A stretch of DNA of 9,795 nt from a virus (IMGVR_UViG_2711768052_000007:1-9795); one strand, 5' to 3'; shown: positions 1 through 9,680, numbered from the stretch's first letter. Made by a program: numbers and translations. Notes: generated from the letters alone by a model not told the origin.

Positions 1-564
1 TCAACGACTGCGCTTAGCGTGGCGCTCCCAGTTTTCTTGCTTCGCCTGCGCCGTTTTACGTAGTGCGACGTAACACGCCCCGCTGCCGCCATGATGCGGT
101 AGCGCAGTGCAATATGCCTGAACATCATCAAATTCGGTCAGCCAGCGCGCCACATAGCTGCGGACAATATTGGCATGCGATTTATCATCCCGTCCTTTGC
201 CATGAATAATCAGCACGTTACGCAAACCATCAGCCATGGCTTGTTGAATGAAACTGAACATCATTTTGCGGCACTCTTCCACCGGCTGGCGCAAAAGATT
301 CAGGCTCGCCTGTTGCGGATATTTACCACTGCGCAGCTTATCCAGCACCCCATGTTGCAACCCTTCCCGCCGAAACTCCAGCGGCTGACTTAGTGGGATG
401 ATGTCGAGAAATCCGGTGGTGAGGAAATTATCAAGCTGCAGCGTGTCGATACGCTGCGGCGCACGTTGGTTACGCGTTGGATGCCAGTGGACATCGGTAG
501 CACGTTTCAGCGGCTGGACATCTTCCATGGCGTCAAGAAACAGCGATTTGTCGTCAAGGTTCAT
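1..564 (-). CDS. smrA: Smr-domain protein SmrA (YdaL), probable DNA endonuclease
   Basis: Complete 187-aa ORF (ATG at 564-562, stop at 3-1). The translation matches E. coli SmrA/YdaL as I recall it, including length. SD-like GGAGGATG lies upstream at about 568-575. Confidence 0.85.
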   Translation of the reverse strand: MNLDDKSLFLDAMEDVQPLKRATDVHWHPTRNQRAPQRIDTLQLDNFLTTGFLDIIPLSQPLEFRREGLQHGVLDKLRSGKYPQQASLNLLRQPVEECRKMMFSFIQQAMADGLRNVLIIHGKGRDDKSHANIVRSYVARWLTEFDDVQAYCTALPHHGGSGACYVALRKTAQAKQENWERHAKRSR

Positions 565-2889: not shown

Positions 2890-3225
2890 TTATCGTGCCA
2901 GCGGCTGAACGGATACGCCAGAACCCGCAAAGGCAGCGCATTTTTTCGCGTCAGTATCGACGCTCTCGGGCCAGTTAACGACGGCGATATTGAATATCCC
3001 CGTCTTGTAACACTGTGCAGATTTTTGTTTTGCCGTGTCCAGTGGGTAGGAGGTCAGATAAATGGCCTTGCCTGACTCCTGACCGCCCCACGCCTTAAAC
3101 TCGCCGTTCTCCGTCATCATCAGCGGGGTAAGCTCGGGAATAACTCCGGCATCAGCGGCAAAGTGTACCAGCGTAGTGGAAACCTGCTGTGTACCGGACA
3201 ATAATTCAACATATGGAACGCCCAT
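2890..3225 (-). CDS. Head decoration protein (lambda gpD-like)
   Basis: 111 aa. TPLMMTENGEFKAWGG...CYKTGIFNIAVVNWPES...KKCAAFAG aligns with lambda D (TPLMLDTSSRKLVAWDG...FYKSGTFRYEDVLWPEA...KRTAFAG). ATG at 3225 is preceded by GGGGGA. Confidence 0.8.
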   Translation of the reverse strand: MGVPYVELLSGTQQVSTTLVHFAADAGVIPELTPLMMTENGEFKAWGGQESGKAIYLTSYPLDTAKQKSAQCYKTGIFNIAVVNWPESVDTDAKKCAAFAGSGVSVQPLAR

Positions 3226-3236
3226 AAAATCCCCCG

Positions 3237-4292
3237 TTAACCAATTTTTACGGTAACAAATTTGCGGATATCTGCCGGAACCGGCTGTGGTGCGCTGTGC
3301 GTCTGCACGTATTCAATCGACGGATCGCCGCCCTCAATCCAGTTTTTCGGGTAGTACATGTTTCGCGTTGCGCCAGTTCTTACCGCTTCCTGATCCATAA
3401 TCGCGCCATAGGCCACCAGTCCTTTATTGCTGGTATTACCCAGAACAAGCAAATCAGGCTCAAGGAAATATTTTTCCGTTCCGTCGCCGTCAGTGTATTT
3501 ACCGGAATAAACGATAAGGGCCAGATCGCCAAGATAGCCTTTAAAGCTCACCACTTCGCCCAGGTTTTTACACGCCAGCTCTGCGGCGGATTCTGAACCA
3601 CGGGAAAGATCGTACAGTTCACGAAATTTTTTAAAGCTGCGTAACGTGCGCCATACCTCAACGCCCATAATCATGACGTTGGCGGGGCAACCTGCCTGAT
3701 CGGTGTACAGTTCGATGTCATAAATTGGATCGTGCGTTTCCTTGTCAGCCTCTGACCACTTTTTACCTTGTCCCTGCGTAATGATGTTTTTAGTCGGGAT
3801 TTTCCAGTCGATTTCGTATCGATTTATACCTTCGCCTTCAATGATGTTTTTCCCGGTCGTGACTGCATTCACCGCCAGCCATTCCACACGCGCTTTAATG
3901 GAATTTACCTGGCGGCGCATGTTGCCCGTAATCAGGCGCATACGACGGTATGTAGGGTCGTTAAGCTGTGCTGGATCTTCACCAGCCATGCGTATGATGG
4001 TTTTTGATGGATCGATTTCGTGTTTGGGTTTCATGTAGCCAGGGCGGATAGTGCTTGTTTCGTACCCTTTATCTCGCTGAACCTGGCTACCCACCATAGG
4101 CGAACAAAACGCCGACATGGTGACTTCTTCAATATCCAGGGTATCTAACATGATGTCCTGCGTGTTGAAGGTCGCCACGTTCGGGAAAAACAGCGACGTA
4201 AACAGCGGACTAAATTTAAAATCTGGAATATCCTGGCGATTCAGATATGTAAAAAGCTGATGCGTGTTAAGCGCCTGCGCTTTGTCTGTCAT
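3237..4292 (-). CDS. Major capsid protein (lambda gpE-like)
   Basis: 351 aa with conserved blocks shared with lambda E: FKFSPLF, PGYMKPKHE, EDPAQLNDPTYRRMR, VVSFKGYLGDLALIVYSGKY, VLGNT, YPKNW, GDP, SAP. The start ATG overlaps the upstream stop (ATGA). Confidence 0.9.
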   Translation of the reverse strand: MTDKAQALNTHQLFTYLNRQDIPDFKFSPLFTSLFFPNVATFNTQDIMLDTLDIEEVTMSAFCSPMVGSQVQRDKGYETSTIRPGYMKPKHEIDPSKTIIRMAGEDPAQLNDPTYRRMRLITGNMRRQVNSIKARVEWLAVNAVTTGKNIIEGEGINRYEIDWKIPTKNIITQGQGKKWSEADKETHDPIYDIELYTDQAGCPANVMIMGVEVWRTLRSFKKFRELYDLSRGSESAAELACKNLGEVVSFKGYLGDLALIVYSGKYTDGDGTEKYFLEPDLLVLGNTSNKGLVAYGAIMDQEAVRTGATRNMYYPKNWIEGGDPSIEYVQTHSAPQPVPADIRKFVTVKIG

Positions 4293-4580: not shown

Positions 4581-4675
4581 CAATTGACTATTATTGCAAA
4601 TCATGAAAGTATAATTCCGCGGTTTTACCTTGTATCGTAGAGTTGTTAGCATCAATCACGTTAACGGCATGAAAT

Positions 4676-4709
4676 CCCCCCGGAACCTCATCCCGGGGGG
4701 ATTTTTTTT
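4676..4709 (+). terminator. Strong plus-strand intrinsic terminator
   Basis: 8-bp GC stem CCCCCCGG/CCGGGGGG (4676-4683 / 4693-4700) with a 9-nt loop, followed by A and T8 (4702-4709). Confidence 0.6.
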
Positions 4710-4713
4710 GCGC

Positions 4714-4741
4714 ACAAAAAAGCCGTGAAAAATCCCGGCTT
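4714..4741 (-). terminator. Minus-strand intrinsic terminator after the SSB-like gene
   Basis: On the minus strand, hairpin AAGCCG-N10-CGGCTT is followed by TTTTTT. It lies about 15 bp downstream of the alternative-frame TAA stop at 4758-4756. Confidence 0.45.
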
Positions 4742-4755
4742 CTGTCACTCGTTGC

Positions 4756-5122
4756 TTAAAACGGTATGTTATCCCCGTACGGATCATCATTTCCCGCCTG
4801 TTGTTTTGCCCTGTTCAGTGCGTCAGTAGCCTGGCCCTGTTGACCTTTTTTGCCGCCCGGGCGCGCCGTTCTGGCCTGTCCACTGGCTTACCTGCATGTT
4901 ACCCGCCACGCTCACAAGTTCGCCTTTCTGGTGCTTTGCCAGTGCGTCGGCCTGTCTGCCAAACGCCAGGACGGATAACCACATCGTCGCCGTTCCGTCA
5001 TCTGCCTGGCTGCACGGCAGGGGAACCGCCATACTCGCCATCGCCATTTGTGTCCCTTTGCTGGTGGTCTTTAACTGCGGGTCAGCCACCAGCCGCCCGT
5101 AAGCCGCTATCTGTGCTGTCAT
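4756..5122 (-). CDS. SSB-like single-stranded DNA-binding protein with an apparent +1 frameshift near an A6 tract
   Basis: The track ORF (4823..5122) shows an SSB-like OB-fold pattern (GRLVADPQL..., WLSVLAFGRQADALAKHQKGELVSVAGNMQVSQWTGQNG versus E. coli SSB [40 protein letters not shown]). The +1 frame downstream of the A6 run (4846-4851) continues to ...AGNDDPYGDNIPF and stops at 4758-4756. IPF is the hallmark C-terminal tip of bacterial SSBs. Confidence 0.5.
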
Positions 5123-5370
5123 GATTCCACCTCTCCGGTTTTAACATTGATGGTTGTCACCTGTTCCGCTTCGGCAATCTCCCGTTCTGTCAGCGTGGCA
5201 AAGTTTGCTGCCGCCGTGGTCATGAATGCGCTTATCAGTTCGGGGTGTGCTTTCGCGTATCCTTCCCCGGCATGGCGGTCTATCGTTCTGATTGCCACCT
5301 TTAAGGCGTGCTCTGTCATGTCTAATGCGCGATATTTTGGCGCTGTCTTATCTCTGGTTTTTCTGGTCAT
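5119..5370 (-). CDS. Hypothetical protein (83 aa) between the origin and the SSB-like gene
   Basis: ORF with ATG at 5370. Its stop overlaps the SSB-like ATG (ATGA). No family recognised. Confidence 0.45.
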   Translation of the reverse strand: MTRKTRDKTAPKYRALDMTEHALKVAIRTIDRHAGEGYAKAHPELISAFMTTAAANFATLTEREIAEAEQVTTINVKTGEVES

Positions 5371-5379
5371 TCCTCACTG

Positions 5380-5573
5380 CTCCCCACTTTTACTACCCAC
5401 TTTTTGAAATTACCCAACGTCTCCCCACTTCTTTTTTTTGTGATTCTAACGTGATGTTTTTCAATGTATTTTTTATTCCCCACTTTTTGGGGTATATACA
5501 GGTGGGAAAGTGGGGAATCGCGTTTCAATTTTGTTAAATTCCCCATACTCCCCACTTTTACTACCCACTTTTT
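5380..5573. repeat. Iteron-type origin of replication candidate
   Basis: An identical 26-bp direct repeat CTCCCCACTTTTACTACCCACTTTTT occurs at 5380-5405 and 5548-5573. The short motif TCCCCACTT occurs at 5381, 5422, 5477 and 5549, with an inverted copy AAGTGGGGA at 5508-5516. An AT-rich spacer lies at 5431-5476. The region is immediately 3' of the Rep-type gene. Confidence 0.6.
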
Positions 5574-6987
5574 ACAGTGGGCGCACGTCATCACCGTCAA
5601 TAGCAATAACGCCATCACCTTCCAGCTTGTACAGCCAGCGCCGGAAGTGTTTCATCTCATACCCCAGCTTTTTCATATCATCGCGCAACAACGGAATTGT
5701 GCATTTATCGCCGCGCTGTGTGCGTGAACGGATACAGCCCCATAGCGCGGCATGATTCTCCGTCTTGTTCCCGGCTTCCTCGATGCGCTCCAGTTCAACG
5801 GGTGGGCGCGGTTTATCCACAACCACCAGCGACGTGATTAACTCCTTGTCAGCGTCGGTAAAAAGCTCCACCACACGTAAATCGTATGCAGCCTCTTTCA
5901 GTTCCTCCGCGTCCTTCATTTTGGTGCAGGAGATAACCAGGGCTTCACTGTCTGCACCTTCACGGCGAATACGGTATTCAGCGTCCAGAGATGCACGAAA
6001 TGCACTGGAACCACGCGCCCCCTTTGTTTCATCCTTGCCGGAATGGTGAACCACCAGCACCGTGGCCCCTGTGCGGCGTTTCAGTTCGTCACATCCACGG
6101 ATAAACGCCCCCATATCCCGCGCGTCATTTTCATCATTACCGCCAAAGCAACGCGCCAGCGTATCAAGAATAATCATGCGTACCGGTTTACCCGTTTCCC
6201 GTTCAACCTGGCGGGAAGCGATGACCATTTCATCAACATCAAGCGGGACTGCCGGAAAAATCGGGCGGTTTACCAGGTACAGATTTTCCACCCGTTCATC
6301 ATTAACGATTTCCCATGCCTTGATACGGCGGGGGACACCAATGCCACCTTCACCGACAACATACATCACCGAACCATGCGCCACCCTGCGGCCTCCCCAG
6401 TGACGGCCAGTGGCAACATGACACGCCCAGGAACACGCGAGGAACGATTTATAGGAACCGCTCGCGCCGTATGTGCTGCACAATGAATTAGCCGGAATCA
6501 CGCCCTTAACGACATAATCAAGCTGTGTGTCGTACCCTGCAGATCCAATGCTCATTGGTAGCGTGGTTTTTCGCTGGCTGTATTGCTCGTCAGTAAGTAT
6601 TTCCCCGCGCTCTGCCTGTTCGCGGATCCGTTGCAGGTAGTCGTGCCAGTTCTCCAGCTTCTGGCTGTGCATTCCATCAGGGTAATAATTCGCATCCCGT
6701 ACACCTGCCGCCGCCAGCTTTTGCCCGATAGCATTAATATTTGACGGCTTGATGTGGCCTGCCTTGTACAGCCGGACACAATAGCGACCATCGTCGATGA
6801 TTTTCAGGTCTGCCAGTTCGTCAAGCTGGCTGTCTCCAAGCCATACGGGTGGCACGTTGTCGCCAGCAAGTCGCCCGTCCTGTTCCTGCCATTGTTTCGC
6901 GTGCGCCCAGGCATCACTACCCGCAAAAATAATGACTTCGGTCATTTTGTCGTGTGGCTGTTTTTTTAAGTTCGGTGCCAGTTTCAT
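5572..6987 (-). CDS. Replication initiator / helicase-type ATPase (RecA-like P-loop NTPase with C-terminal winged-helix)
   Basis: 471 aa with a Walker A-like YGASGSYKSF, then MIILDTLAR and VLVVHHSGKDETKG blocks typical of RepA/DnaB-like satellite and plasmid replication ATPases. The C-terminus looks like a DNA-binding domain. The start ATG overlaps the upstream stop (ATGA). Confidence 0.75.
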   Translation of the reverse strand: MKLAPNLKKQPHDKMTEVIIFAGSDAWAHAKQWQEQDGRLAGDNVPPVWLGDSQLDELADLKIIDDGRYCVRLYKAGHIKPSNINAIGQKLAAAGVRDANYYPDGMHSQKLENWHDYLQRIREQAERGEILTDEQYSQRKTTLPMSIGSAGYDTQLDYVVKGVIPANSLCSTYGASGSYKSFLACSWACHVATGRHWGGRRVAHGSVMYVVGEGGIGVPRRIKAWEIVNDERVENLYLVNRPIFPAVPLDVDEMVIASRQVERETGKPVRMIILDTLARCFGGNDENDARDMGAFIRGCDELKRRTGATVLVVHHSGKDETKGARGSSAFRASLDAEYRIRREGADSEALVISCTKMKDAEELKEAAYDLRVVELFTDADKELITSLVVVDKPRPPVELERIEEAGNKTENHAALWGCIRSRTQRGDKCTIPLLRDDMKKLGYEMKHFRRWLYKLEGDGVIAIDGDDVRPL

Positions 6988-7283
6988 TTTTTACCCCTGA
7001 ATGCGTTAATCATGTTTTTCATTTTCTGAATATTTGCCCGTGCCTTTGCGTTGCTGGTGGGCTGTTTGCGTGGTGTGGCCTGTATCAGTGAAAAATCACG
7101 CCGGAACTGATAAACAGGCATCACGCAGTCATAACCGTACCCATCACGGCGGTAAGTAACGCACCGTCCCGCCACGCTTTTAATCGTTACCGTGCCGCCG
7201 TAGTTATCCCGGAAAATATCGCCGGGGCGGATTTCAGGCCGAGCGGGGCCGCTGGCAGTAAAGCCAGAATTTTTCTTTTTCAT
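6984..7283 (-). CDS. Hypothetical protein (99 aa, basic C-terminal tail), translationally coupled to the rep gene
   Basis: ATG at 7283 is preceded by AGAGGA. No family recognised. Confidence 0.5.
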   Translation of the reverse strand: MKKKNSGFTASGPARPEIRPGDIFRDNYGGTVTIKSVAGRCVTYRRDGYGYDCVMPVYQFRRDFSLIQATPRKQPTSNAKARANIQKMKNMINAFRGKK

Positions 7284-7288
7284 GGTTT

Positions 7289-7498
7289 TTATTCCTCTGC
7301 GCGGGTCTTGTCGTGTATTTCCATAACCGCGTTTAATTCATCAATAACCGGGGTTAACAGAGTGCTGAAAGCAGAAAATAAATCCCCCCCCCGTTCGGCA
7401 TGAACTTCGGTTAATTTAATTAATACCGCTTTCATTTCCAGTGCCCGGTTTAATGCATTCTCAGAATGAATAAGAACATCGAAAGGGATTTTATCCAT
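7289..7498 (-). CDS. Hypothetical small helical protein (69 aa) containing a G10 homopolymer
   Basis: ATG at 7498 overlaps the upstream gene end by 8 nt. A run of 10 C (plus strand 7383-7392) lies inside the ORF. No family recognised. Confidence 0.4.
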   Translation of the reverse strand: MDKIPFDVLIHSENALNRALEMKAVLIKLTEVHAERGGDLFSAFSTLLTPVIDELNAVMEIHDKTRAEE

Positions 7499-7957
7499 GG
7501 CTTACATCCTCCGTGAATTTTCTTCTGTACCGTGCCTCTGCCACATATTCAGCATAGTCCGACGCAATAATAAGAATATCGTTGCCGGTTCCTGAATGTT
7601 CAGCGGTTCCAATTAAAAAACATGCGGCCTTTATCAGGTCATTAACAGCCAGCAACGCATCGCCTGTATCATCCGGTGCGCCATCAAATTCCTGTTTCAG
7701 GGCATTAAAACGATCATCACGCATAACCCCCCCCCATTTTCACAATCAGCAATCAGGATGGCTTTGGCCTCATTCAGTGCCATATCAGCGGTAAGCTGTG
7801 CGTAGGCCAGCGAATGGGGGATTATTGCCCCTGTATACTCCGGCTCTCTGGTAATGTGTTTTTCTGCGGTTGCTGCCGTGCATGAAATATCAATCAGCGC
7901 GTGCATCAGCGTAGTGAGCGCGGCGGCTGCTGCGTCCGGACGTGGGTTATTGCACAT
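7491..7957 (-). pseudogene. Hypothetical protein split into two ORFs at a G9 homopolymer (frameshifted or phase-variable)
   Basis: ATG at 7957-7955 has a strong RBS (AGGAGGT, 5-nt spacer). The frame runs to a stop at 7699-7697 just after the G9 tract (plus-strand C9 at 7727-7735). The 77-aa ORF 7491..7724 continues in the +1 frame, and one extra G would fuse both into about 157 aa. Confidence 0.4.
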
Positions 7958-8249
7958 GGCGCACCTCCTGACGAATACGGGCGGCGAATACAGCGACACA
8001 ACCGGACGGGCAACGGTTACGCGCTTCGCGTTCTGTCCATGCGGTGACGTGGATGATTTGAGATTCTCCGGCACTCAGTGCCAGAAAACGCCACACAAAG
8101 GCCGTTTGTGTGTGCGCTAGGCGTGGGGTATGCTGTGTTCCAGCCATAATCGTTACCTCGTTTAACGGTTTGGTTAGAAGCCCCGTTACTGCTCCAACAG
8201 TGCGGGGCTTCGTCGTTTCAATTGCTGAATTGCATGTATCAGCCCTTGT

Positions 8250-8316
8250 GGTATTCAGATTACATTTTGGTGAATACCATTTCAAGTCTTTTTTGGTATT
8301 CACTTTTGTATTACAC
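8250..8316. promoter_or_regulatory. Operator-like repeats GGTATTCA(C) upstream of the ribbon-helix-helix gene
   Basis: GGTATTCA at 8250-8257; a perfect 9-bp inverted pair GTGAATACC (8270-8278) and GGTATTCAC (8295-8303); a degenerate copy GTATTACAC at 8308-8316. A candidate -10 TATTAAT lies at 8327-8333. Confidence 0.35.
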
Positions 8317-8346
8317 TGCATCCCGTTATTAATCGGAGGTGCAAAC

Positions 8347-8652
8347 ATGTCCACGAGTTCTGTTAACAATAAGTCACAGCAACTGAATGCCAGATTTCCA
8401 CATGAAGTAGTGAGTGGCATTGAGGCATCCCTACAGCCAGGGGAAACTAAAGCGAATTTTATAGTTACGGCTGTACGCGGTGAGATCGCCCGCCGCCAGG
8501 CAGAAGGAAGCGGAGAAAATCCCCTGGTTTCTTCGCTCGATGCACTGGCGCAGGTGGAAAAAATCGGAGTCAAAGCAGCCGAGGAGATCGGGCAACTCGT
8601 CACCGTCGCGCGTGAAGAACTCCAGCGCCGCAAGGCCAAAGAGCAGGAATAG
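8347..8652 (+). CDS. Ribbon-helix-helix (Arc/CopG-like) DNA-binding protein, putative island regulator
   Basis: 101 aa with a strong RBS (GGAGGTG, 5-nt spacer). The N-terminus (QQLNARFPHEVVSGIEASL...ANFIVTAVRGEIARR) fits the beta-strand plus two-helix RHH pattern. It is the only convincing plus-strand gene in the island. Confidence 0.55.
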   Translation: MSTSSVNNKSQQLNARFPHEVVSGIEASLQPGETKANFIVTAVRGEIARRQAEGSGENPLVSSLDALAQVEKIGVKAAEEIGQLVTVAREELQRRKAKEQE

Positions 8653-8656
8653 CCCC

Positions 8657-8675
8657 ACCGGAATTTTTTTCCGGT
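8657..8675. terminator. Hairpin between convergent genes (possible bidirectional terminator)
   Basis: ACCGGAA-TTTTT-TTCCGGT lies 5 bp after the RHH stop and abuts an out-of-frame minus-strand TAA. There is no long U-tract on either side. Confidence 0.3.
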
Positions 8676-9143
8676 TACGCTTTGCCCACCAGCCGCAAAT
8701 GTGGCATTGTTGGTGATGCGTTCAAGTTTGATTTGCCGTAATACCCACTGGCGACCCTTTGCGGTCGCCTTTGTTTTGCCTGTTATCCGGCAATTGTGGC
8801 GCTTCGCCACACGGTTGATATAATCCCACTGCTCAGATTCATTTTTTGCGCAGTAGGTTAATTGTTCGCAAGGGCGCTCCGGCAACGGGGCGCTTTTTGT
8901 TTTTATTAGTTTGTAGAAAACTGACTCAGAGATAATGCTCATATTCTGATTGCCGTCAGGGGGGTAAGTTAAATTTACTCCCTTTTCATCAAGCATCTGC
9001 AACGCTCTGGCGTTAATAATATTGGTTTCACTCCCGCCAATAAGGCCGGAAATAACCGGAATAATTTCAGCGAAATTTTGCAGATTCTGGTTTTCAGGCC
9101 GAACGAAGCCCCGCCCCTGTACAGGCGTATATCCAGTATTCAT
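8675..9143 (-). CDS. Hypothetical protein with a weak Bro-N/Ant-like motif; C-terminal frame unresolved
   Basis: ATG at 9143. The first 150 residues or so look protein-like, and ISESVFYKLIKTKSAP resembles the SESGLYxLIxRSRKPEA motif of Bro-N/Ant-type proteins. The in-frame ORF has no stop until 7947 and runs antisense through the RHH gene; a TAA in the +1 frame at 8677-8675 is the likely true end. Confidence 0.4.
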
Positions 9144-9195
9144 GGTTAAATCTCTGTATTAGTGGATGGGTGGCGGCTGTGTGCCGCCAGCCTGA

Positions 9196-9384
9196 TTAGT
9201 GAACTGCCTCGCGGCTGTCCTTCCATGCCAGAACTTCGGATAAAGACCAGCCAACGGAACGACCACCGAGTTTACGCCGTGATGGGAATTGTCCAGTCTT
9301 CTCCAGGCGATACCGACATGAGCGGCTCAGGCCTGTAAGTTGCTGACATTCTTTTTCACGTATAAAGCGATCTGTGCTTAACAC
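9196..9384 (-). CDS. alpA: AlpA-family (Xis-like HTH) transcriptional regulator
   Basis: The C-terminal 62 aa (VLSTDRFIREKECQQLTGLSRSCRYRLEKTGQFPSRRKLGGRSVGWSLSEVLAWKDSRE) matches the AlpA pattern. A GTG start at 9384-9382 is preceded by AAGGGGGA. The track ORF's upstream 36 codons are low-complexity and lack an RBS. Confidence 0.7.
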   Translation of the reverse strand: MLSTDRFIREKECQQLTGLSRSCRYRLEKTGQFPSRRKLGGRSVGWSLSEVLAWKDSREAVH

Positions 9385-9680
9385 AATTCCCCCTTTGTTG
9401 TTTCTTAAAGAGTCATTGGGTGGATTATTGGGTTGGGTTGTGTCGGATTGTGTCAGGGTGTTTATGGAATGGCAAACACTGGTGGCGGTCATTTTACAGA
9501 AGTGGGGGTAGTGAGAATAAAAATCCTTTTAATTCATTATGATGTAAAGGCATAAAATTCTGTTTTTACGCCTTTTTTACATGTTTTTAAGAGTGATTCG
9601 CCAATGTACAAAAAGCCAGTAAAACGACTGAAAATCAACTTTTTAGGGTGTCAGTCAGATGATAATCAAGTTTGTTCCAG

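Follow-up and report, generated by a model that had tools for sequence, protein, structure and literature searches.

Three apparent frame disruptions in an Escherichia coli phage satellite: a deletion in ssb, a variable poly-G tract and a mosaic open frame

We analysed a 9,795-nt stretch of viral DNA (IMGVR_UViG_2711768052_000007:1-9795, hereafter the window), which is a phage satellite of E. coli of the Gram-negative phage-inducible chromosomal island (PICI) type. Three of its features look like broken reading frames, and they are very likely real sequence with three independent origins: a deletion in ssb, the gene of a single-stranded DNA-binding protein (SSB), a length allele of a poly-G tract at the junction of two small open reading frames (ORFs), and a mosaic frame that is open throughout. 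An initial annotation had placed all three at or next to homopolymers (an A6 run in ssb, a G9 run splitting one gene, and G3 and A7 runs near a Bro-N-like gene) and had proposed a single common cause for the cluster, either homopolymer-length errors in the assembly or an island undergoing pseudogenisation. A frame break is present at two of the three sites (ssb and the G9 run) and absent from the Bro-like gene, and the homopolymer is the site of the change only at the G9 run, the one place where a run differs by 1-2 nt from that of intact homologues (G9 against G8 or G7). The proposal of one shared cause is not supported; the three sites differ in cause. Taken overall, the finding is mostly ordinary.

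Accuracy of the sequence and the deletion in ssb

A look-up with the exact 99-aa truncated SSB returned two records, an isolate contig (L003; CXXR01000010.1 of GCA_001268205.1) with 100% identity to the window and a metagenome contig in ENA (L004; ERR2359771) with 99.97% identity over 9,336 bp. The metagenome contig differs from the window by two single-nucleotide polymorphisms and by a T8/T9 difference at 5432-5439, in the non-coding region of the replication origin (ori), which is the only indel between the two assemblies; 36 of 37 homopolymers of at least 6 bases are identical in both. L003 and L004 are identical at 4756-5122, 7384-7392, 7727-7735 and 8600-9143, and L004 thus shares with the window the ssb deletion, both C9 runs and the Bro region. 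The chromosomal genes that flank the island in L003 are all full length, with the lengths found in E. coli PI7 (abgA 436 aa, abgR 302, smrA 187, dgcM 410, zntB 327 and dbpA 457), to whose sequence the flanks are 97-99% identical. All three sites are the same in the isolate and in an independent metagenome contig, and none of the flanking chromosomal genes is shortened; by the criterion of the initial annotation itself, this refutes assembly error as the source of the frame breaks. That length errors of the assembler or platform made all three is an idea with almost nothing left in its favour: each site does have a run of at least 6 bases no more than about 30 nt away, and the T8/T9 run does differ between assemblies, but the lesion in ssb measures 56 bp instead of 1 bp, the Bro region has no frame break, and the G9 state is also present in complete genomes and in 12 of the 49 metagenome contigs.

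The lesion in ssb was resolved by comparison with intact homologues of 140 aa in two related islands, one in E. coli PI7 at the identical smrA/abgR site (L001) and one in strain 2014C-3075 that is helper-embedded, inside a prophage terminase gene (L002). The alignment leaves a gap of 56 bp in the window. L001, whose gene is intact, has the 12-bp sequence CGCCGTTCTGGC at 5647 and 5703, exactly 56 bp apart, with a third, imperfect copy 124 bp further on; in the window, a sole remaining copy marks the junction (Table 1). The deletion takes out ETRQGWQVIADSVISART, which is the last strand of the oligonucleotide-binding (OB) fold, and thereby shifts the tail out of frame, so that the original C-terminal tail (ARTARPGGKKGQQG...DDPYGDNIPF; ARTARPGGKKGQQGQATDALNRAKQQAGNDDPYGDNIPF, with the end NDDPYGDNIPF and a stop) lies in another frame and ends at 4756. 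The Pfam SSB profile (PF00436) matches residues 5-87, no further than position 89 of its 104, the TIGR00621 score of 44.2 bits falls short of the cutoff of 53.95, and a complete OB fold together with the acidic C-terminal tip (D-I/D-P-F) in one frame is not present in the window ssb.

A frame displacement in ssb had thus been correctly suspected, with the tail in another frame, and misplaced at the A6 run. A 1-bp slip in that run was tried as the cause and rejected, the run having the same length in the intact relatives; such a slip, from A6 to A5, does occur in the ssb of L015, which is a different island. The gene is intact in 23 of the 27 related loci that cover it, and in one of the others, L045, what is missing is precisely the 124-bp unit delimited by the second pair of repeats. 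As the deletions in the window and in L045 match the 56- and 124-bp spacings of the repeats, both are attributed to repeat-mediated deletion, and the window ssb is a true pseudogene that arose in this way. The two copies that lie 56 bp apart would have slipped or recombined, with loss of the last OB-fold strand and displacement of the acidic IPF tail. This lesion is probably private to the window lineage: among the listed full-coverage matches in E. coli complete genomes, none has the deletion junction, each being made of two pieces that span 131 nt (75 + 56). Within the island family as a whole, ssb appears to be lost recurrently. The intact gene of the family (L001, 5647-5839) holds three copies of a 12-13-bp motif, CGCCGTTC(T/C)G(G/T)C, at spacings of 56 and 124 bp.

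The long open frame of the Bro zone

What had been read as a Bro-N-like gene displaced near G3 and A7 runs lies within a frame of 398 open codons, and L001 is collinear with the window over 8682-9250 and shows no 1-bp differences at those runs. The window ORF resembles the intact 192-aa Bro-N protein of L002 only over residues 57-107 of the latter, in one frame. A frame shift inside the Bro-like gene was considered and rejected, as tblastn with the intact protein found its similarity continuing in no other frame of the window. The Pfam Bro-N family (PF02498) gives no match to the window ORF at E up to 1, and scores 72 bits over positions 1-96 of the intact L002 protein. In other islands (P0141 and similar), the leader of the long ORF is joined directly to a downstream "tail", and for this reason the zone is, judging by its sequence, a patchwork of antirepressor segments. 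The patchwork agrees with the domain-swapping "Bro network" zone of such PICIs in PMC10111431. The "Bro-N-like gene" is the mosaic 5' part of a long frame that starts just below alpA and is kept open as far as the stop codon of icd.

Unexpectedly, 17 loci, with 13 distinct sequences among them, have the corresponding frame free of stops for 314-474 codons, although each of their remaining two frames or both together hold 14-30 stops. In 11 of the 13 distinct sequences it runs in frame into the icd-like domain despite crossing the ylcI/ynfO gene and its flanks antisense. The Prokaryotic Genome Annotation Pipeline (PGAP) labels the long form "Icd-like protein" (327 aa in L054, 161 aa in L055). 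Section 20 of PMC10111431 describes how translation of the eta/kil leader ORF of phage P4 prevents immunity-specific termination and suggests that the same occurs in PICI Bro zones, and CI/seqA homologues in some PICI Bro genes are also mentioned there. The long frame is most likely kept open because its translation would protect the early transcript from termination, as P4 eta does, and we infer an eta-like anti-termination role for it from this analogy. A search of the window against Rfam at E up to 0.1 returned no C4/CI-like RNA in 7900-9200, its two matches being at chance level and outside the region. On the plus strand, three terminator-like hairpins with T runs stand downstream of ylcI (8655-8676, 8750-8769 and 8870-8897), and a promoter-like sequence, TTGATATAAT, lies between them at about 8814-8823; a small plus-strand RNA may be made here, for which Rfam gave no match.

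Poly-G tracts of variable length

The G9 run named in the initial annotation, here tract 1, is real, and its lengths range from G7 to G13 across E. coli islands. The coding strand reads GAT TGT GAA AAT G9 TT ATG CGT GAT at this point. In the G9 state, the upstream ORF is 86 aa long and ends in GGGLCVMIVLMP and a stop, and the 77-aa ORF after it is unaffected; in the G8 state of L001 and L002, the upstream ORF ends in CENGGGYA with a stop codon that overlaps the start of the next ORF (ATGCGTGA), and PGAP calls two genes there, of 79 and 77 aa. The sequences predict a single fused protein of 154-156 aa for G7, G10 and G13; for G8, G9 and G11 they predict separate products, an N-half of about 73-87 aa and a C-half of 73-77 aa. 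PHROGs holds the fused form (phrog_2512, 154 positions) as well as the separate halves (phrog_5146 and phrog_24341). On our reading, tract 1 is a hypermutable poly-G run exactly between two helical half-proteins, at which slipped-strand changes move the locus between the fused protein (G7, G10, G13) and separate proteins (G8/G11 or G9/G12).

Public sequences show tract 1 at many lengths. Queried with an in-silico fused sequence, the protein clusters returned 470 proteins, and the best 120, which were examined, are nearly all 150-156 aa long, with the junctions ENGGVM (58), ENGGGVM (48) and ENGGGGVM (1). Among the best 60 matches of a 106-nt probe in E. coli complete genomes, the spans were 104 (23), 105 (18), 106 (13), 107 (4) and 108 (1), and the PGAP gene count follows the span, with one gene at 104 and 107 and two at the others; direct reading in L058-L060 confirmed G7, G8 and G9. 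Forty-nine metagenome contigs with exact flanks carry C8 (25), C9 (12), C7 (8), C10 (1) or an interrupted run (3). The claim that G9 splits one gene therefore holds in that a fused family exists (phrog_2512 and the 120 protein clusters), and falls short in that the two-gene state is equally common. A neighbour-joining tree of 48 tips, built on 460 flanking bases, requires at least 17 changes of tract-1 length, and L008 (C9) and L046 (C8) have identical flanks and different tract lengths. Gap statistics on the flank alignment were of no use as a control for the indel rate, since gaps in divergent segments compensate for one another in the alignment, and ORF integrity was used instead. The nearest relatives of the window are uniformly G9 (L004, L019 and five complete genomes with the identical 106-nt sequence), within a surrounding clade that is mostly G8. 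Because the nearest relatives are all G9, the window state was inherited and is no error; G9 is a common natural allele and no sign of decay. An exact-flank scan of one genome per species found no copies, and a protein-based species scan found them only in E. ruysiae and Shigella flexneri.

Whatever the length of tract 1, neither half loses its ORF, and the C-half is under purifying selection, with a ratio of nonsynonymous to synonymous substitution rates (dN/dS) of 0.23 among split-state loci; the corresponding value for the N-half, about 0.5, is unreliable and was left unused because variants of 73 and 79 aa were compared ungapped. As every length is predicted to yield both halves, length variation would be tolerated and accumulate. 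In E. ruysiae (L062, 2499-2520), the C-half gene (MRDDRFN...) stands behind an antirepressor-like gene in place of the usual N-half and is still preceded by G9-TAAAC-ATG. Because the G9 run is kept before the ATG behind a different upstream gene, we suggest that the run is part of the translation-initiation region of the C-half gene, where it could act as a Shine-Dalgarno-like site for the ATG that follows it. An AlphaFold2 model of the fused form (60-sequence alignment) was poor, with a mean predicted local distance difference test score of 57.9 and a predicted template modelling score of 0.44, values too low for fold comparison, and places a low-confidence linker at residues 75-99, around the tract, between two helical halves. 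Searches of Pfam, NCBIfam and PADLOC gave no family for the 86-, 77-, 69- or 155-aa proteins, which match only PHROGs of unknown function.

A second G9 run, tract 2, lies 343 bp from the first, inside a 69-aa gene that it leaves in frame in the window. Relatives carry C5 to C10 here, and where the length is out of frame, the gene is truncated to 47-52 aa with its C-terminal coding sequence intact in another frame. Most relatives are shifted in this way: of 15 full-length matches in E. coli complete genomes, 11 have a tract-2 span that breaks the frame. Tract 2 would act as a classical on/off frameshift site, which happens to be "on" in the window. Two C9 runs in 9.8 kb, against 0.07 expected, are non-random, and both are polymorphic in length with repeated independent changes. 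It is possible, if on balance unlikely, that both are adaptive contingency loci, whose reversible high-frequency switching would change the early proteins and so diversify the dealings of the satellite with helper phages or the host. Besides their number and polymorphism, the retention of the G run in E. ruysiae in another context is in line with this, as is the low proportion of interrupted runs (3 of 49 loci); against it, frame frequencies are near those of neutral drift, the close lineage of the window, with G9 at both tracts, shows no variation, the small proteins have no assigned function or phenotype, and E. coli is not known for contingency genes based on simple sequence repeats (SSRs). 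That the variation reflects adaptive switching, instead of being merely tolerated, is a proposition we are inclined to doubt. A more specific form, in which the two runs make up a phase-variable module of the early operon, tract 1 toggling between fused and split products and tract 2 switching the 69-aa protein on and off, with the outcome that a clonal population holds a mix of early states unlike in their response to helper phages or interference with them, would be slightly less likely again.

General pseudogenisation of a domesticated, immobile satellite, with the whole island in decay, is improbable. The ssb gene is truly inactivated in the window and independently broken in 3 of 27 related islands, antirepressor genes in the Bro zone are reduced to fragments, and L054 has a frame-shifted capsid gene, all as decay would predict; yet int, alpA, the icd-like gene, DUF4222, RepA/primase, the 83-aa gene, capsid, decoration and DUF1441 have the lengths of their relatives, the C-half gene is under purifying selection, and the arrangement of the Bro zone is common to many islands, with the long frame kept open. 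Of the pseudogenisation initially proposed, what stands is ssb, through a repeat-mediated deletion and no homopolymer slip. There is still less to be said for transcriptional or translational slippage on G9 that restores the fused 154-155-aa protein from the split genotype and makes the DNA frame irrelevant. Long homopolymers can cause RNA polymerase slippage, which is established for A/T runs of at least 9, and all three frames occur naturally with both halves intact, but the downstream ATG and, in the G8 state, the stop-start overlap already account for expression.

Several points weigh against our account of three separate, naturally arising features. Tract variation was seen by comparing assemblies, and switching inside a single clone is putative. 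In the window's own lineage (L003, L004, L019 and the five complete genomes, whose flanks are identical) every copy is G9, so any switching cannot be extremely rapid. Sequencing errors could lie behind some of the length differences in long-read "complete" genomes, and recombination among mosaic islands could inflate the parsimony count. The three small proteins lack a function match in the family databases searched, and only about a third of loci keep the frame at tract 2, the share that pure neutrality or decay would give. Finally, because Rfam gave no match in the Bro zone, it is the conserved open frame that carries the P4 analogy.

The island and its relation to known systems

From its gene content and neighbours, the window is a Gram-negative PICI-type satellite sited between abgR and smrA. 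According to the gene calls of L003 and the annotation of L001, it has an int and alpA end, a Bro zone, a primase/replicase gene with an adjacent ori and late genes; iteron-like repeats upstream of the RepA/primase gene probably form the ori. The exact island occurs in no E. coli complete genome, the best match having 95-96% identity over 81% of the query. The island has neither a portal gene nor a protease gene, and late modules vary among relatives: L001 has a ClpP-capsid fusion and L002 an HK97 set, and the capsid gene of L054 is the frame-shifted one. Two tandem terminator-type hairpins stand between ssb and the capsid module (4669-4741, minus strand) and match a Bacillus small RNA in Rfam below threshold (32.9 bits against a gathering score of 60 bits), almost certainly through terminator structure alone.

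Table 1. Features of the window, with positions counted from its first nucleotide.
Feature	Position	Strand	Remarks
smrA (chromosomal)	1-564		
Late module	2890-4292	-	lambda E-like major capsid (PF03864, 351 aa) and D-like decoration (PF02924, 111 aa)
SSB-like pseudogene	4756..5122	-	OB-fold part to premature stop at 4823; 99 aa (ORF 4823..5122)
T6 run on + (A6 on coding strand)	4846..4851		run held responsible in the initial annotation; length unchanged against intact L001 and L002 genes
12-bp direct repeat CGCCGTTCTGGC	4864..4875		sole remaining copy, junction of the 56-bp deletion
Iteron-like direct repeats TTTTACTACCCACTTTTT	5361-5574		3 copies about 84 bp apart, upstream of RepA/primase; probable ori
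RepA/primase gene	5572-6987	-	
69-aa gene	7289..7498	-	phrog_2196; intact in the window
Poly-G tract 2 (G9; C9 on +)	7384..7392	-	in frame in the window, encodes RGGD mid-gene
C-half gene, 77 aa	7491..7724	-	phrog_24341; positions 78-153 of phrog_2512; own ATG 2 nt past the G run
N-half gene, 86 aa in the G9 state	7697..7957	-	phrog_5146; positions 1-77 of phrog_2512; ends CENGGGLCVMIVLMP, then stop
Poly-G tract 1 (G9 on coding strand; C9 on +)	7727..7735	-	junction of two small ORFs
Long open frame, 398 codons	7947..9143	-	mosaic; directly below alpA
AntA-type leader	codons 1-48 of long ORF	-	resembles PF08346 proteins P0155 and P0158
Bro-N-like piece	codons 42-80 of long ORF (nt 8904-9020)	-	
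Stretch of non-coding appearance in long ORF			antisense to ylcI, followed by the in-frame icd-like domain
YlcI/YnfO-family gene inside long ORF, opposite strand	8347..8652	+	NF041551, E = 1e-16; called by PGAP in relatives
icd-like gene, 66 aa from own ATG	7947..8147	-	NF033153, E = 5e-18; C-terminal end of long ORF
alpA	9196-9492	-	
Other genes		-	minus-strand genes also include DUF4222, the 83-aa gene, ssb, capsid, decoration and DUF1441 genes, the icd-like gene and three small ORFs

For annotation, ssb should be marked as a pseudogene by 56-bp deletion, the 86- and 77-aa ORFs should remain two separate genes, annotated with a remark on the variable tract and not "corrected", and the Bro-like ORF should not be named a frame-shifted Bro-N gene. 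More broadly, the two poly-G runs of this common E. coli satellite family change length repeatedly in nature, in a species not generally known for such contingency repeats. If functional, the runs would add a stochastic layer to the interplay of satellite and helper, and a phase-variable module, if real, would amount to a satellite-borne case of SSR-based contingency switching in E. coli. The conserved long frame through the Bro zone offers a concrete case for P4-eta-like control in PICIs. The one modestly new element is that the early operon of this family holds two hypervariable poly-G runs; among the papers listed in a literature search, none links PICIs with homopolymers or phase variation.

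Each of the three sites has counterparts in known systems. The ssb lesion resembles direct-repeat deletions by slipped mispairing, in that a perfect 12-bp repeat flanks the segment in the intact allele, one copy is left at the junction and the deletion length equals the 56-bp spacing; nothing in it is unusual, and what is notable is only that one small gene holds three copies of the motif and has been hit independently at least twice. At the poly-G tracts we found three of the marks of a phase-variable locus, namely an uninterrupted run of at least 7 G/C in or next to coding sequence, repeated length changes that distinguish close relatives, and a frame and product predicted to follow the length. 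Phase variation at poly-G/C SSRs, including C-terminal switching and the fusion or splitting of genes, is described for Neisseria, Campylobacter, Helicobacter and Bordetella (for example PMC5320596, PMC2823697 and PMC1891110). The present case differs from such loci in its E. coli host, in its phage-satellite carrier and in that tract 1 has no "off" state, because the downstream half keeps its own start.

Compared with P4 eta/kil, as portrayed in the section cited above, the long ORF is alike in lying directly downstream of an alpA/vis homologue, in containing antirepressor (Bro network) segments and in staying open while sequence and length vary, whereas it passes antisense through a ylcI/ynfO-family gene and ends icd-like, and CI, seqA and seqB were not detected by Rfam. 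The island as a whole shares with EcCICFT073-type Gram-negative PICIs and helper-embedded PICIs (PMC10111431) the four-zone layout of int-alpA, Bro, replication and late genes, with DUF4222, RepA-primase, iterons and SSB in the replication zone and a lambda E-like capsid and D-like decoration protein in the late zone; it differs in sitting between abgR and smrA and in its truncated ssb.

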